Source of the DNA: Malacoraja senta
Lineage: Eukaryota
Assembly (NCBI GenBank): GCA_038087875.1
Contig: CM075987.1
Coordinates: forward strand, 24,802,001 to 24,866,000
DNA: 64,000 nucleotides
Direction of reading: 5' to 3'
Shown here: piece after piece, positions 47,701-55,048 of the stretch
Numbering within the stretch: the first letter of the stretch is position 1
Layout of the letters: each line of letters begins with the position of its first letter
Notes under the pieces: generated by a model
What the model was told of the DNA's origin: nothing
Seen by the model: only the letters and a program-made list of their open reading frames with translations
Database searches by the model: none
Position numbers and translations under genes: made by a program

Positions 47701-48427
47701 AAGGTATGATTCAGGTCAGGATACTTCTGTAGACCCTTCTTGAGTCTGCAAAAGGTCCCCGACCTGAAACATCTTCTGTCCAAGTCCTCCAGAGATGCAC
47801 TCCAGCCCTTATTCCAGCAATCCCTGGACATATTGGGGATTTTGTGCACGTTAGTTAAGGTTGCAGACATCTCCCTACTTCTCCGGAAAGTAACGGCAAA
47901 GCTGCTGCGAAAGTGCGGAAAGCTCGGCGGAGGTGGAATTCCGTGAGAGAGTCGCTGGAAACATCGGGAGTGGAGAGCAGGGGCCGGTGGGAGGGGGGAA
48001 CTGGGGTAATCCCTCCAGCGCATAAGGTAGGCCGCTGCCGGGACACACGATGGCTGGGCGATGAGGAGAGAGGGACGACGGTCTGTAGTCCGAGTTGGTC
48101 GTGGGCGACGGAGGGGATTCGGGAGCTGCTCCGGAAGACCGAACACGTGGGGATCCGGACTTTAAACTCAATGAAATCAGTTTAGTTTATTGTCACGTGT
48201 ACCGAGGTACAGTGAAAAGCTTTTGTTGCGTGCTAACCAGTCAGCGGAAAGACAATACATGATTACAATCGAGCCATTTACAGTGTATAGATACATGATA
48301 AGGGAATAACTTATAGCGCAAGGTAAAGCCAGCAAAGTCTGATCAAGGATAGTCCGAGGCTCTCCAATGAGGTTGATAGTTGTGGTCGGATGCTCGCTTG
48401 TTGTGGTACGACGGTTCATTTGCCTAA

Positions 48428-48912
48428 TAGTTAGGGGGTCAGACAGGCGATTCTGTGGACGCAGTCGGGAGACCCGGATGGTAGTTTGCCTCCCTGGTGC
48501 CAGGGTCTGTGATGTGTCCCAACGTGTCCAAGACATCCTGAAAGGGCAGGGAGAGGAGCCCGAGGTCGTGATACATATAGGTACCAATGACATAGGTAAA
48601 AAAAGAGAAGAGGTCCTGAAAGGAGAATTTAGGGAGTTAGGAGGGGAGTTAAAGAGAAGGACAGCAAAGGTAACAATCTCGGGATTACTGCCTGTACCAC
48701 GCGACAGTGAGAGTAGGAATGGAGCGAGGTGGAGGATAAATGCGTGGCTGAAGGACTGGTGCAGAAGGCAGGGATTCAAATTTCTGGATCATTGGGACTT
48801 CTTTTGTGGAAGGTTCGACCTGTACAAAAAGGATGGGTTGCGCTTGAACCTGAGGGGGACCGATATCCTGGCGGGGAGATCTGCAAAGGCTACTGGGGAG
48901 ACTTTAAACTAG
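48428..48912 (+). CDS. CR1 ORF1 C-terminal part (SGNH/GDSL esterase-like domain)
   Basis: Motifs VVCLPGARV, VVIHIGTNDIG, ISGLLPVP and DGLRLN (DxxH histidine replaced by R), ending ETLN-stop. Confidence 0.85.
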
Positions 48913-51900
48913 AATGGTTGGGGGGAGGGACTCAAATAGAGAATGCTATTAGACAGTGTGTGAGGCAGGAGGCAGAGAAGGAAAGCACTCAGACCCAACA
49001 TGTAGGGGGGAAAGAAGAAAACAATAATAAACAGAGAATAAGAGGTGGTGGGGTTCTTAAATGGGTGAGCAGAGAAACAGAGGGGTGTAAAATGCGGGCG
49101 GAAGCAATAGGTAGCAAGGTGAAAGGTAAAAGTGGCAGGCAGACAAATCCAGGACAAAAATCAAAAAGAGCCACTTTTCAACATAATTGTATAAGGGGTA
49201 AGAGCGTTGTAAAAACAAGTCTGAAGGCTTTGTGTCTCAATGCAAGGAGCATTCGTAATAAGGTGGATGAGTTGAACGTGCAGATGGCAATTAATGATTA
49301 TGATATAGTTGGGATCACGGAGACATGGCTCCAAGGTGACCAAGGCTGGGAGCTGAACATCCAGGGATATTCAATATTCAGGAGGGATAGAGAGAAAGGA
49401 AAAGGAGGTGGGGTGGCGTTGCTGGTTAGAGAGGAGATTAACGCAGTGGAAAGGAAGGACATTAGCTTGGAGGATGTGGAATCGGTATGGGTAGAGCTGC
49501 GAAACACTAAGGGGCAGAAAACGCTGGTGGGCGTTGTGTACAGGCCACCTAGCAGTAGTAGTGAAGTTGGGGATGGCATCAAACAGGAAATTAGAAATGC
49601 GTGCAACAAAGGCAAAACAGTTATAATGGGTGACTTCAATCTACATATAGATTGGGTGAATCAAATTGGCAGGGGTGCTGAGGAAGAGGATTTCTTGGAA
49701 TGTATGAGGGATAGTTATCTAAACCAACATGTAGAGGAACCAACGAGAGAGCAGGCTATTCTAGACTGGGTATTGAGTAATGAGGAAGGGTTAGTTAGCA
49801 GACTTGTTGTGCGTGCCCCCTTGGGCAAGAGTGATCATAATATGGTTGAGTTCTTCATTAGGATGGAGAGTGACATTGTTAATTCAGAAACAACGGTTCT
49901 GAACTTAAAGAAAGGTAACTTTGAGGGTATGAGACATGAATTGGCCAAGATTGACTGGCAATTAGTTCTAAAAGGGTTGACGGTGGATATGCAATGGAAG
50001 GCATTTAAAGACTGCATGGATGAACTACAAAAATTGTTCATCCCAGTTTGGCAAAAGAATAAATCAAGGAAGGTAGTGCATCCGTGGATAACAAGGGAAA
50101 TCAGGGATAGTATCAAAGCAAAAGATGATGCGTACAAATTAGCCAGAAAAAGCAGCATACCAGAGGACTGGGAGAAATTCAGAGACCAGCAGAGGAGGAC
50201 AAAGGGCTTAATTAGGAAAGGGAAAATAGATTATGAAAGGAAACTGGCAGGGAACATAAAAACTGACTGCAAAAGTTTTTATAGATATGTGAAGAGAAAG
50301 AGATTAGTTAAATCAAATGTAGGTCCCTTGCAGTCAGAAACAGGTGAATTGATCATGGGGAACAAGGATATGGCAGACCAATTGAATAACTACTTTGGTT
50401 CCGTCTTCACTAAGGAAGACATAAATAATCTGCCGGAAATAGCAGGGGGCCGCGGGTCAAAGGAGATGGAGGAACTGAGTGAAATCCAGGTTAGTCGGGA
50501 AGTGGTGTTGGGTAAATTGAATGGATTAAAGGCCGATAAATCACCAGGGCCAGATAGGCTGCATCCCAGAGTACTTAAGGAAGTAGCTCCAGAAATAGTG
50601 GATGCATTAGTGATAATTTTTCAAAACTCTTTAGATTCTGGAGTAGTTCCTGAGGATTGGAGGGTAGCAAACGTAACCCCACTTTTTAAGAAGGGAGGGA
50701 GAGAGAAAACGGGGAATTACAGACCAGTTAGTCTAACATCGGTAGTGGGGAAACTGCTAGAGTCAGTTATTAAAGATGGGATAGCAGCACATTTGGAAAG
50801 TGGTGAAATCATTGGACAAAGTCAGCATGGATTTACGAAAGGTAAATCGTGTCTGACGAATCTTATAGAATTTTTCGAGGATGTAACTAGTAGAGTGGAT
50901 AGGGGAGAACCAGTGGATGTGTTGTATCTGGACTTTCAGAAGGCTTTCGACAAGGTACCACATAAGAGATTAGGATACAAACTTAAATCACACGGTATTG
51001 GGGGTTCAGTATTGATGTGGATAGAGAACTGGCTGGCAAACAGGAAGCAAAGAGTAGGAGTAAACGGGTCCTTTTCACAATGGCAGGCAGTGACTAGTGG
51101 GGTACCACAAGGCTCAGTGCTGGGACCCCAGCTATTTACAATTTATATTAATGATCTGGACGAGGGAATTGAAAGCAACATCTCCAAGTTTGCGGATGAC
51201 ACTAAGCTGGGGGGCAGTGTTAGCTGTGAGGAGGATGCTAGGAGACTGCAAGGTGACTTGGATAGGCTGGGTGAGTGGGCAAATGTTTGGCAGATGCAGT
51301 ATAATGTGGATAAATGTGAGGTTATCCACTTTGGTAGCAAAAACGGGAAGGCAGACTATTATCTAAATGGTGGCCGATTAGGAAATGGGGAGATGCAGCG
51401 AGACCTGGGTGTCATGGTACACCAGTCATTGAAAGTAGGCATGCAGGTGCAGCAGGCAGTGAAGAAAGCGAATGGTATGTTGGCCTTCATAGCAAGAGGA
51501 TTTGAGTATAGGAGCAGTGAGGTTCTACTGCAGTTGTACAGGGTCTTGGTGAGACCACACCTGGAGTATTGCGTACAGTTTTGGTCTCCAAATCTGAGGA
51601 AGGACATTATAGCCATAGAGGGAGTGCAGAGAAGGTTCACCAGACTGATTCCTGGGATGTCAGGACTTTCATATGAAGAAAGACTGGATAGACTTGGCTT
51701 ATACTCACTAGAATTTAGGAGATTGAGAGGGGATCTTATAGAAACGTACAAGATTCTTATGGGGTTGGACAGGCTAGATGCAGGAAGATTGTTCCCGATG
51801 TTGGGGAAGTCCAGGACAAGGGGTCACAGCTTAAGGATAAGGGGAAAATCCTTTAAGACCGAGATGAGGAAAAACTTTTTCACACAGAGAGTGGTGAATC

Positions 51901-52028
51901 TCTGGAACTCTCTGCCACAGAGGGTAGTTGAGGCCAGTTCATTGGCTATATTTAAGAGGGAATTAGATGTGGCCCTTGTGGCTAAAGGGATCAGGGGGTA
52001 TGGAGAGAAGGCAGGTACGGGATACTGA
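48903..52028 (+). CDS. CR1 ORF2: apurinic-like endonuclease plus reverse transcriptase, no stops or frameshifts; first in-frame ATG at 49092
   Basis: APE motifs LNARSI, ITETW, GGGVA, VYRPP, GDFN, SDH. RT motifs PGPD, YRPVSLTS, QHGF, LDFQKAFDKV, GVPQGSVLGP, FADDTK. Confidence 0.95.
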   Translation, partial: FKLEWLGGGTQIENAIRQCVRQEAEKESTQTQHVGGKEENNNKQRIRGGGVLKWVSRETEGCKMRAEAIGSKVKGKSGRQTNPGQKSKRATFQHNCIRGKSVVKTSLKALCLNARSIRNKVDELNVQMAINDYDIVGITETWLQGDQGWELNIQGYSIFRRDREKGKGGGVALLVREEINAVERKDISLEDVESVWVELRNTKGQKTLVGVVYRPPSSSSEVGDGIKQEIRNACNKGKTVIMGDFNLHIDWVNQIGRGAEEEDFLECMRDSYLNQHVEEPTREQAILDWVLSNEEGLVSRLVVRAPLGKSDHNMVEFFIRMESDIVNSETTVLNLKKGNFEGMRHELAKIDWQLVLKGLTVDMQWKAFKDCMDELQKLFIPVWQKNKSRKVVHPWITREIRDSIKAKDDAYKLARKSSIPEDWEKFRDQQRRTKGLIRKGKIDYERKLAGNIKTDCKSFYRYVKRKRLVKSNVGPLQSETGELIMGNKDMADQLNNYFGSVFTKEDINNLPEIAGGRGSKEMEELSEIQVSREVVLGKLNGLKADKSPGPDRLHPRVLKEVAPEIVDALVIIFQNSLDSGVVPEDWRVANVTPLFKKGGREKTGNYRPVSLTSVVGKLLESVIKDGIAAHLESGEIIGQSQHGFTKGKSCLTNLIEFFEDVTSRVDRGEPVDVLYLDFQKAFDKVPHKRLGYKLKSHGIGGSVLMWIENWLANRKQRVGVNGSFSQWQAVTSGVPQGSVLGPQLFTIYINDLDEGIESNISKFADDTKLGGSVSCEEDARRLQGDLDRLGEWANVWQMQYNVDKCEVIHFGSKNGKADYYLNGGRLGNGEMQRDLGVMVHQSLKVGMQVQQAVKKANGMLAFIARGFEYRSSEVLLQLYRVLVRPHLEYCVQFWSPNLRKDIIAIEGVQRRFTRLIPGMSGLSYEERLDRLGLYSLEFRRLRGDLIETYKILMGLDRLDAGRLFPMLGKSRTRGHSLRIRGKSFKTEMRKNFFTQRVVNLWNSLPQRVVEASSLAIFKRELDVALVAKGIRGYGEKAGTGY

Positions 52029-53335
52029 GTTGGATGATCAGCCATGATCGTATTGAATGGCGGTGCAGGCTCGAAGGGCCGAATGGCCTACTCCTGCACC
52101 TAATTTCTATCTATGTATCTATGTATGACAACAAAAAATCTCATGTGCATAGAAACCATAGAAAATAGGTGCAGGAGGAGGCCATTCGGCCCTTCGATCC
52201 AGCACCGCCATTCATTGTGATCATGGCTGATCGTCCCCTATCAATAACCCGTGCCTGCCTTCTCCACATATCCCTTGACTCCACTAGCCCCAAGGTTGCG
52301 AGGGAGATGAACTGGGGGGGGGGGGGAGATAGAGGGGTCAAGTGAGTCAAGGAATGGTGTAGGGAGCCCGGTGGGGGTGGGTTCACATTGTTTGGGGGTG
52401 GGGAGGATGGGGGAGGGAGCAAAGGGGGGTAAGGAGCCGTATGTGGCAGGGGTAAGGGGCAGGGAGCCACAGGGAGGAAGTCACATTGGGGGTGGGGAGG
52501 GTGTTGCAGTTTAGGAAGTCAAACCAGGGCAGGGTCTTCACTGTGAATGGCGGGGCGCTGGCGGAATGTGTGGAGCCGAGGGATCTAGGAGTGCAAGTAC
52601 GAGTTGGGCCGAAGGGCCTCTTTCCAACGCTGTATCACTCTATGAATCTATGACAAAGTGCTGGAGTAATTCAGCGGGTCAGGCAGCATCTGTGGAGAAG
52701 ATAGACACAAAGTGTTTGAGTAACTCAGCGGGTCAGGCAGCATCTGTGGAGAGAAGGAATGGGTGACATTTTGGGTCGAGACCCTTCTTTGGTTTAGTTT
52801 AGTTTAGAGATGCAGCGCGGAAACAGATCTTTTGGACCACGGACTCTGCGGCGACCAGCGATCACCCCGTACACTAGCACTATCCAACACACATCAGGGA
52901 CAATTTAACAATTTTGCGGAGTCCGATTAATTTACAACCCTGAACGTCTTTGAAATGTTGGAGGAAACTGGAGCACCCGGAGTAAAAACCCACGCAGGTC
53001 AAGGGGAGAATGTGCAAACTCTGCACAGACAGCACCCGTAGTCAGGATCGAGCCTGGGTCTCTGGCGGTGAGGCAGCAACTGTACCGCTGCGCCCCTGTG
53101 CCACGCAGAATTATATAACGGTTTCCTCCACCATAAATGCACCCAATATGTGCTAGTAATGTCCTGTTTGCCGGCTTGTTGACCGTCTGTGTTCCCCTCC
53201 TACAGGGTTTAGGAGTCGTTGCTGTGGAGGGAGAGACGGTGACGTGAGTGTCCATTGAGGGCGGCCAGGGTGCCGGTGAGCCCCCCCCCCCCCCATCTGC
53301 TCGGTGTGGGCTGAGCTTCGAGGGGCTGAGATTCG

Positions 53336-55048
53336 ATGGGGGACCACATGACCGGGCACAACAAGGAGAAGCGATATGGGTGTGATGTGTGTGGCAAGGC
53401 CTGCCGGTGCCCGAGCCGGCTGGACATCCACCGGCGGGTGCACACGGGAAAACGCCCCTTCGACGGCTCGTGCGACAAGAGCTTCAACATGGTGAAACAG
53501 CTGAAGATGCACCAGCGGGTTCACACTGGCGAGAAGCCCTATTGCTGTGGCACCTGCGGCAAGAACTTTGCCCAGTTGTCGGGGCTGAGGAACCACCAGC
53601 GGGTGCACAGCAGTGAGCAGCCCTTCACCTGCTCCGACTGCGGCAAAGGCTTCAAGTCGTCGCTGGACCTGAAGGTGCACAGGCGTGTGCACACCGGGGA
53701 GCGGCCCTACACCTGCGTCCAGTGCGGCAAGGGTTTCGCCCTCTCCGGCAAACTGCTATCCCATCAGCGCACCCACACCGGCGAGCGCCCCTACACCTGC
53801 AGCTACTGTGGCAAGGGCTTCACCCAGTCTAATTACCTGCTGTCCCACCAGCGCACCCACACTGGCGAGCGCCCCTACACCTGCACCCAGTGTTGCAAGG
53901 GTTTCACCCTCTCCGGCAGCCTGCTGAGGCACCAGCGCACCCACACCGGCGAGCGCCCCTACATCTGCGTCCAGTGCGGCAAGGGCTTCACACAGTCCAG
54001 TCACCTGCTGTCACACCAGCGCACCCACACCGGCGAGCGTCCCTACACCTGCAGCTACTGCGACAAGGGCTTCATCTGCTCCAGTCAACTGCTGTCCCAC
54101 CAGCGCACCCACACCGGCGAGCGTCCATTCACCTGCAGCTACTGCGACAAGAGCTTCATCTGCTCCAGCCACCTGCTGTCCCACCAGCGCACGCACACCG
54201 GCGAGCGCCCCTTCAGCTGCACCCAGTGCGGCAAGGGTTTCACCCTCTCCGGCAGCCTGCTGAGGCACCAGCGCACCCACACCGGCGAGCGCCCCTACAC
54301 CTGCATCCAGTGTGGCAAGGGTTTCACCCTCTCCAGCAGCCTGCGGTCCCACCAGCGCACCCACACCGGTGAGCGCCCCTACACCTGCATCCAGTGCGGC
54401 AAGGGTTTCACCCTCTCCAGCAGCCTGCGGTCCCACCAGCGCACCCACACCGGCGAGCGTCCCTACACCTGCAGCTACTGCGGCAAGGGCTTCATCTGCT
54501 CCAGCCACCTGCTGTCCCACCAGCGCACCCACACCGGCGAGCGTCCCTACACCTGCGCCCAGTGCGGCAAGGGTTTCACCCTCTCCGGCAGCCTGCTGAG
54601 GCACCAGCGCACCCACACCGGCGAGCGCCCCTACACCTGCATCCAGTGTGGCAAGGGTTTCACCCTCTCCAGCAGCCTGCGGTCCCACCAGCGCACCCAC
54701 ACCGGTGAGCGCCCGTACACCTGCTTCCAGTGCGGCAAGGGCTTCGCCAGCTCCACCAGACTGCTGTCCCACCAGCGGGTGCACACCGGCGACCGTCCCG
54801 TCCCCAGCCCGGTGTGTGGAGTGCGCTTTACCATGGCCTCCAACGCCCTGTCTCACCAGTGCGTGCACACCAGTGGCCAGCCCTACGACTGCCCGTACTG
54901 CGGTGAGGAGTTTGACAGCTCGCGGGGGTTGCGGCAGCACCGGCGGAACCACGCCGGCGAGCAGCTGCTCCCACTGCGACAAGAGGGCATGGGGTCTGCG
55001 GGAGCATCAGCGGTTACACACCGGAGAGAGACCTTATGTGTGCGCTGA
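53336..55048 (+). CDS. Tandem C2H2 (Kruppel-type) zinc-finger ORF: 19 finger units in frame (2 degenerate), ending in out-of-frame sequence after a frameshift; gene or young pseudogene
   Basis: 570-aa ORF of CxxC-x12-HxxxH repeats with TGERPY linkers. A candidate splice acceptor GTTCCCCTCCTACAG ends at 53205. No KRAB or SET domain is visible. Confidence 0.85.

Follow-up and report, generated by a model that had tools for sequence, protein, structure and literature searches.

A conserved slippery heptamer at the ORF1/ORF2 junction points to possible -1 frameshifting in esterase-type CR1 retrotransposons

The CR1 element and its junction

We analyzed a stretch of 64,000 nucleotides (nt) from Malacoraja senta (GenBank assembly GCA_038087875.1, contig CM075987.1, positions 24,802,001 to 24,866,000, forward strand), which we call the window. 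It carries a 5'-truncated long interspersed nuclear element (LINE) in which the end of an esterase-encoding open reading frame 1 (ORF1) is followed by an ORF2 for an apurinic-type endonuclease (APE) and a reverse transcriptase (RT), with a single ORF1/ORF2 junction within the 64 kb (Table 1). ORF1 similarity and by-eye likeness to CR1-labelled shark and ray consensus rows assign the element to the CR1 clade with an esterase ORF1. Here we describe the slippery heptamer found at this junction, its conservation, and what it suggests about how ORF2 is expressed.

ORF1 of the window copy corresponds only to residues 151-311 of the full 311-residue ORF1 protein P0002, with which it shares 87% identity (tblastn, the match beginning at 48427); the closest ORF1 proteins are Leucoraja erinacea entries with 82-86% identity. 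Because similarity starts at residue 151, the copy has no ORF1 start. It is thus unable to make a fusion protein itself, and the claim made here therefore concerns the family. The endonuclease start motif, LKALCLNARS, lies at codon 107 of the -1 frame. The element ends in a short tandem repeat rather than poly(A), as in esterase-ORF1 CR1s, and its 3' end is ~97% identical to others elsewhere in the window. In the window copy the esterase DGLH motif has Arg at its catalytic His codon (48841-48843), which is His in nearly all aligned contigs (place 48842); this is a private change of a decaying copy.

Table 1. Features of the CR1 junction region and its 5' flank (window coordinates)
Feature	Position	Strand	Basis or remark
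CR1-type LINE (esterase ORF1 3' half, endonuclease-RT frame, tandem tail)	48427-52126	+	
CR1 ORF1 3' half, SGNH/GDSL esterase, ends ...ETLN-stop	48427..48912	+	Pfam Lipase_GDSL_2, E=4.6e-11
Slippery heptamer T TTA AAC, X XXY YYZ phase with ORF1	48903..48909	+	direct reading
ORF1 stop TAG, immediately 3' of heptamer	48910..48912	+	direct reading
Open -1-frame linker, shift site to endonuclease motif	48909..49220	+	open-frame and endonuclease-motif comparison
G-run (G5-6-A-GGG type), candidate stimulator	48920..48929	+	starts 11 nt after heptamer
First in-frame ORF2 ATG, window subfamily, unconserved	49092..49094	+	in-frame deletions in sister contigs
ORF2, apurinic-type endonuclease and RT, stop-free	49221..52028	+	Pfam Exo_endo_phos, E=2.9e-13; RVT_1, E=7.1e-32
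3' untranslated region and short tandem tail (TATCTATG)n	52029..52126	+	Tandem Repeats Finder 52108-52126, x2.4
Unrelated multi-copy repeat, flank adjoining 5' truncation point	48179..48429	.	several 79-88% matches elsewhere in window

A first-pass annotation, made from the letters alone, had described a canonical -1 frameshift heptamer between the two frames and proposed that the family may make an esterase-endonuclease-RT fusion. Its reading of the junction was exact in every coordinate. ORF1 ends ACT TTA AAC TAG at 48901-48912, with the heptamer phased as X XXY YYZ; the -1 frame, translated here as FKLEW..., has no stop between 48717 and 52028 and is the ORF2 frame that holds the endonuclease and the RT; its first in-frame ATG, at 49092, is codon 64 of that frame; and a G-rich tract, GGTTGGGGGGAGGG, follows shortly downstream (48916-48929). 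The likening of the heptamer to a coronavirus-type slippery site also stands, as the same U_UUA_AAC joins coronavirus 1a to 1b and is counted among the most shift-prone heptamers in a review (PMC5009743, in the passages available). The heptamer is the only TTTAAACTAG in the window and, over the final 145 codons of ORF1, the sole in-frame heptamer of X XXY YYZ type. Given Leu-Asn and the codon usage of the window element, the chance of T, TTA, and AAC is 0.017 per element, and the chance that the linker stays open up to the endonuclease motif is ~0.0004 by composition.

Conservation of the heptamer and of the -1 frame

Conservation at the DNA level was assessed with a scan that is blind to synonymous change. 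Metagenome contigs were searched for the esterase motif followed at the usual distance by Leu/Phe-Asn-TRR, with all synonymous codons allowed, which gave at least 72 loci, and an endonuclease search was run over all 72 listed loci. Seven of them had endonuclease matches downstream, and all seven have TTTAAAC; three further loci are CR1 by ORF1 similarity, on contigs that end 84-152 nt past the stop. Among the matches listed, T TTA AAC was present in 10/10 CR1 loci and in 0/62 non-CR1 loci, ten of which have TTTAAAT. The heptamer is followed by TAG or TAA in all ten CR1 loci, at a place where the scan pattern itself demanded TRR. These loci represent about five lineages, namely L005, one six-copy subfamily of amniote type, L024 (a second amniote-type copy), and the divergent L002 and L062. 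The ORF1 end of the sturgeon-like L005 equals that of members of a cluster with Acipenser entries, and the amniote-type label is one that we presume from likeness to crocodilian consensus rows and from recall. Scans of viral contigs found nothing.

In six lineage representatives including the window, only one of 24 upstream third codon positions is invariant, and this is the first T of the heptamer, which sits under Thr, His, Ala, and Tyr codons. Silent variation across the same representatives affects even the catalytic-motif codons for Asp, Gly, Leu, and Gly. Nine consecutive bases at the junction are invariant despite diverged silent sites and unalignable linkers, and the ORF1 proteins diverge to ~33% identity. 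The heptamer is thus conserved at the nucleotide level beyond amino-acid need.

Published consensus sequences extend the taxonomic range. We term-searched the vertebrate consensus table in the supplement of PMC13343379, which gives sequence in 400-character cells, and judged junctions by eye; such a search is circular for the motif itself. Within these cells TTTAAACT matched 44 times, with 19 matches at an esterase-end junction, 3 at other places in CR1 rows, and 22 in LINEs of other types. By the names in the row codes, the junction rows come from alligator, crocodile, Pogona, bullfrog, coelacanth, bowfin, and AldAff, and among cartilaginous fish from Callorhinchus, Hypanus, Pristis, Scyliorhinus, and Squalus. 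In 18 of the 19 rows the heptamer runs directly into a stop, and four synonymous variants of the heptamer had no junction match in the cells searched. Frames were not counted from these rows because they are gappy. TTTAAACTA(A/G) also occurs upstream of ORF1, in the 5' region, in two dogfish rows (SquAca_CR1-18 and SquAca_CR1-3). The supplement of Suh 2015 holds 3' alignments and gave no junction matches in the files searched, one file lying outside the search.

The ends of the ORF1 proteins agree with the DNA. We aligned 29 of 36 homologues with the window ORF1, omitting seven that were frameshifted, truncated, or of another type. The last aligned column is Asn in 30/30 rows and the preceding residue Leu in 29/30; residues just upstream vary, and one row extends three residues further. 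A wider profile search added 148 proteins to give a total of 184, of which 143 extend to the region of the catalytic His and 131 terminate within 20-45 residues of it. Seventy-nine of these 131 end LN-stop and nine end GN, a count that has to be discounted somewhat, as the profile's own LN end may favour LN-ending matches. Two clades, of 10 and 9 rows in a quick tree of the esterase domain with terminal residues excluded, lack an Asn end altogether, so that a terminal Asn is not general to retroelement esterases. Seven proteins continue past the motif. At the junction, four of them (P0010, P0023, P0029, and P0078) carry FKL, as expected from a -1-frame reading of TTT AAA CTN; P0023 and P0029 run stop-free up to the endonuclease motif. 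A search for ORF2 homologues returned six proteins.

A separate clade of esterase ORF1s ends mostly GN-stop (nine rows and 6/14 newly found proteins), with relatives ending KN-stop, or FF/FL/GF plus up to a few residues (members P0086, P0088, P0093, P0095, P0096, P0099, P0101, P0137, P0145, P0203, P0204, and P0210-P0213). If the codons agree, these ends may fit the heptamers G GGA AAC, A AAA AAC, U UUU UUN, and G GGU UUU, and at the protein level the clade may thus have swapped one heptamer for another. DNA of the GN-ending clade was not found in a genome scan, which gave three bacterial chance matches; two GGGAAACTAG matches in the published consensus table are not junction heptamers, and a look-up of P0086 in the ESM Atlas returned eukaryotic GDSL clusters only.

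We then compared the path from the heptamer into ORF2. Linkers in four intact elements measure 29-106 codons and cannot be aligned, yet the frame is kept, and the endonuclease start lies in the -1 frame in 6/7 loci. In L005, L002, and L062 no stop interrupts the -1 frame on the way from the heptamer into the Pfam-identified endonuclease (the partial domain of L005 scores just below the curated cut-off). The first Met of this frame falls within the endonuclease, at codons 44, 89, and 115 as against motif starts at 30, 44, and 70, respectively. Upstream of the heptamer the ORF2 frame closes after 15, 6, and 6 nt with no ATG, and the linker of L005 contains no CUG, GUG, UUG, or ACG, only AUU.

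For the window subfamily we aligned contigs of two sequencing runs to 48640-49340. Fourteen plus 45 contigs depart from the window sequence at 49063 and enter a C-x-Y-F-N-A-R-S motif at once, in the -1 frame; with the window's sequence taken for the stretch upstream of the motif, these short-linker sister contigs have no ATG there. The three deepest linker joints (depth 524-890) delete 141, 147, and 147 nt in frame, ATG 49092 included, and a fourth in-frame joint (depth 16) removes 162 nt. The ATG of the window copy therefore lies in a dispensable stretch. Beside this, the linker segment 49063-49230 looks like the linker of the short-linker family plus ~165 extra bases of other source, with an in-frame join at the start of the endonuclease of the sister family; the window subfamily is possibly a recombinant of two CR1 subfamilies.

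Stops in the -1 frame of sister copies between 48912 and 49092 had been named beforehand as an observation that would speak against frameshifting. They were mostly not seen: none of 20 linker substitutions makes a stop (among 40 of 75 variant rows), and the three intact elements are open. Copies that do carry linker stops are the decayed L038, L018, L025, and L059, and L060 has a frame break. Across CR1 families the heptamer phasing was thus kept in 10/10 loci, whereas the open linker was kept in intact elements and lost in decayed amniote-type copies.

Candidate stimulator, proposed mechanism, and alternatives

Downstream of the heptamer, 3-5 G occupy positions +11 to +15 in 9/9 vertebrate-type loci, with at least four G in 7/9. 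At least four G occur there in 0/62 listed controls, and 3.7% of ORF2 5-mers hold as many. By eye, ~14/19 consensus rows (PMC13343379, in the cells searched) have a run of four or more G nearby. The G-run is absent from the divergent L002 and L062. These two loci (L002, 428-500; L062, minus strand, downstream of 868) keep T TTA AAC TAG, and a hairpin ~10 nt downstream takes the place of the G-run. In 70-nt folds of 11 loci a hairpin was clear in L002 only (z -2.46) and weak in L062, and L038 reached z -1.98.

The impression that the window has no clear stimulatory hairpin was borne out (five segments, z -0.5 to -1.0), and this absence of a stable fold after the heptamer is a point against frameshifting, as is the lack of stable downstream structure in most vertebrate loci in the 70-nt folds. 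Likewise, a duplex search found no long-range partner of the G-run better than controls, and an Rfam scan found no frameshift element or other match at the junction. No structure was conserved across the window segments and the 11 loci, in folding whose scope excluded pseudoknots and quadruplexes. The usual distance between shift site and fold is 5-9 nt (PMC7618472), and the G-run lies farther out than this. Synthetic G-quadruplexes can stimulate frameshifting, and a natural G-rich stimulator was anticipated but not known in the available passages of a 2016 review (PMC5009743).

From the motif, its phase, the silent-site conservation, and the open -1 frame, together with the lack of an AUG in several families, we infer a slip, a fusion protein, and perhaps a stimulator. 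Most ribosomes would read UUA AAC in frame and terminate one codon later, releasing an ORF1 protein (ORF1p) of ~311 amino acids. A minority would slip back one base on U UUA AAC, with tRNA-Leu moving onto UUU and tRNA-Asn onto AAA, and would read through a variable lysine/glycine-rich spacer into the endonuclease and RT to make a protein of ~1350 amino acids in the window family. As stimulator we would guess at the adjacent stop codon, through slow termination, joined in vertebrates by the linear G-run 10 nt downstream, which might be bound by a protein or fold as a two-tier G-quadruplex; in the two divergent families a hairpin at about the position of the G-run might serve instead.

The fusion by programmed -1 frameshifting that the first-pass annotation had proposed thus gains support from the silent-site invariance, the fixed phase to the stop, the -1-frame position of the endonuclease, and the AUG-free linkers of divergent intact elements. 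We consider it likely that in esterase-type CR1 LINEs such a fusion of ORF1 with ORF2 is the main form in which ORF2 is expressed.

Several further observations weigh against this conclusion. The ten loci amount to about five lineages, not ten, and seven share one assembly prefix. Four of the eight joints in the linker region are not multiples of three (depths 4.6, 36, 108, and 196; two with unknown fill), and L018 and L025, two of the six decayed amniote-type copies, share an unexplained TGA at linker codon 16. Upstream of ATG 49092, 11/12 linker substitutions are non-synonymous and evenly spread over codon positions, and downstream of it 6/8 are synonymous. The linker thus evolves neutrally at the protein level, and the pattern fits a start at 49092 in the window subfamily as well as it fits an unconstrained spacer. 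Three of the 19 consensus rows (ScyCan_CR1-1a, SquAca_CR1-17a, and SquAca_CR1-6c, in the cells searched) have a UAAUG stop-start with the AUG in the ORF2 frame.

The last two points belong to the strongest alternative, in which ORF2 is translated by termination and reinitiation, at a nearby AUG (UAAUG), at a farther one (49092), or without any AUG as in L1, and the motif is a termination/reinitiation signal. UAAUG is used in this way by SART1 (PMC3708506). ORF2 initiation in L1 has been described as AUG-independent (PMC5009743), so a missing AUG alone would be no proof of a slip. Linker codon 5 is ATG in L059 and L056 and TTG in L018, L025, and L060; the synonymous bias in the window subfamily starts only near ATG 49092; and several annotated ORF2 proteins start at a linker Met (P0185-P0187). 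Reinitiation does not, however, predict a perfectly phased X XXY YYZ with fixed silent sites, and L005, L002, L062, and the short-linker sister subfamily all lack an AUG ahead of the endonuclease. The SART1-type UAAUG is absent from the window junction and from all ten CR1 loci, and the TAG-A-ATG of the window lies in the +1 frame, and sister copies do not retain it. We regard reinitiation as an unlikely main route to ORF2, which perhaps coexists with frameshifting in the UAAUG families.

Less probable still is that the motif is kept for the C-terminal Leu-Asn of ORF1p or as a DNA or RNA signal (a TATA-like internal promoter flanked by G-rich sequence, or a splice acceptor, packaging, or recombination site), with a separate or processed RNA as the source of ORF2. 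TTTAAA between G-rich flanks is reminiscent of core promoters, and TTTAAAC is also found in the junction-unrelated 5' regions of the two dogfish rows (SquAca_CR1-18 and -3). A DNA signal need not lock to both reading frames, however, and a separate ORF2 RNA would still be AUG-less in L005, L002, and L062. The protein-constraint version was rejected, since a need for Leu-Asn is unable to fix TTA, AAC, and the preceding wobble T; in a structure model the terminal residues of ORF1 form a low-confidence coil (predicted local distance difference test score ~55), which speaks weakly against a structural need for them. A splice acceptor at the junction was ruled out, as TAA and TGA variants preclude an AG acceptor.

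That the heptamer is a functionless accident inherited by related elements, which are not independent (one subfamily, with 74-86% identity, supplies six of the ten loci), is very improbable and largely refuted by the silent-site comparison, in which neighbouring silent sites are fully diverged, ORF1 differs down to ~33% identity, and linkers are unalignable, yet nine bases are invariant.

Flanking features, related systems, and implications

Several neighbouring features lie outside the junction. The minus strand of the repeat at 48179-48429 resembles the 3' end of another LINE, which we take to be Rex1-like. Just past the tail of the element lies an inverted CR1 3'-end copy (52071-52197 / 52158-52295, 83% identical), and the pair forms a hairpin with weak scores against microRNA models, below the Rfam gathering thresholds. 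Further downstream, at 53330-55048 (+), there is a 572-codon ORF of tandem C2H2 zinc-finger repeats with HTGERPY linkers.

The element matches canonical vertebrate CR1s with an esterase (type IV) ORF1 as described in the available parts of PMC13343379 and PMC4120745, with the same SGNH ORF1, APE and RT in ORF2, tandem tail, and 5' truncation. It differs from these descriptions in that a conserved slip site joins the two ORFs; the words 'frameshift' and 'overlap' are absent from the main texts of both papers, as far as these were available. No report of CR1 frameshifting was found in the literature covered, including passages of PMC3905857, PMC5408684, PMC11835228, and PMC4255032; CR1 papers of 1997-2003 and Repbase reports lie outside this coverage and could mention one. 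The term 'CR1' was not found in the available passages of PMC5009743. In reviews, as far as covered, production of the ORF2 protein (ORF2p) of LINEs is described as unclear or AUG-independent, and one paper argues that ORF1p must be separate from ORF2p.

The closest functional parallels are gag-pol of retroviruses and long terminal repeat (LTR) retrotransposons and 1a/1b of coronaviruses, where the logic is the same, an abundant structural protein and a rare polymerase fusion (PMC5009743, PMC7618472), and where the coronavirus heptamer is the CR1 one. Here, by contrast, the host is a non-LTR LINE, the stop directly follows the heptamer, and a stem-loop or pseudoknot 5-9 nt downstream was not found in vertebrate CR1 loci (pseudoknots being outside the folding scope). 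PRRSV (the virus of porcine reproductive and respiratory syndrome) has a C-rich motif 10-11 nt past its shift site that is bound by nsp1beta and PCBP (PMC5009743, PMC7618472), which resembles the CR1 arrangement in that a conserved linear motif, short and rich in one nucleotide, sits behind a spacer of 10 nt; the CR1 motif, unlike that of PRRSV, is G-rich, is known from sequence alone, and is missing from two divergent families. Precedents for frameshifting without LTRs are HeT-A, with a shift inside gag (PMC5009743), and Penelope-like elements, with an ORF1, a frameshift, and a pseudoknot (PMC8557442), neither of which is an APE-RT LINE joining ORF1 to ORF2. L1 and SART1, which rely on reinitiation, share the bicistronic LINE RNA and low ORF2 output. 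They make a separate ORF2p, whereas several CR1 families have the slip site and no usable AUG.

Taken together, the comparisons argue that the heptamer is a genuine signal of recoding type, deeply conserved within a major LINE clade, and thus a known mechanism in a new host setting. A broader picture can be offered only tentatively: an ancient esterase-LINE lineage, which includes the dominant retrotransposon of sharks, reptiles, and birds, would use retrovirus-style -1 frameshifting to produce a fusion of esterase, endonuclease, and RT, the vertebrate shift would be driven by the adjacent stop and a protein-read linear G-run, a G-rich counterpart of the C-rich PRRSV switch, and not by an RNA fold, and a sister clade would have swapped in other heptamers. 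In that picture the roles of the G-run and the adjacent stop are putative, and the G-run, spaced by 10 nt, would be a candidate for the anticipated natural stimulator of G-rich type.

In most vertebrates, according to published descriptions, CR1 is the retrotransposon group that dominates. If -1 frameshifting is indeed its route to ORF2, this would give a testable answer to how ORF2p is produced for a whole LINE clade and would place gag-pol logic in a non-LTR element. Annotation of ORF2 from the first Met would then often be wrong, and ORF2-only or codon-optimised CR1 constructs would be predicted to misbehave. Frameshift inhibitors such as Shiftless could, by the same reasoning, restrict CR1.

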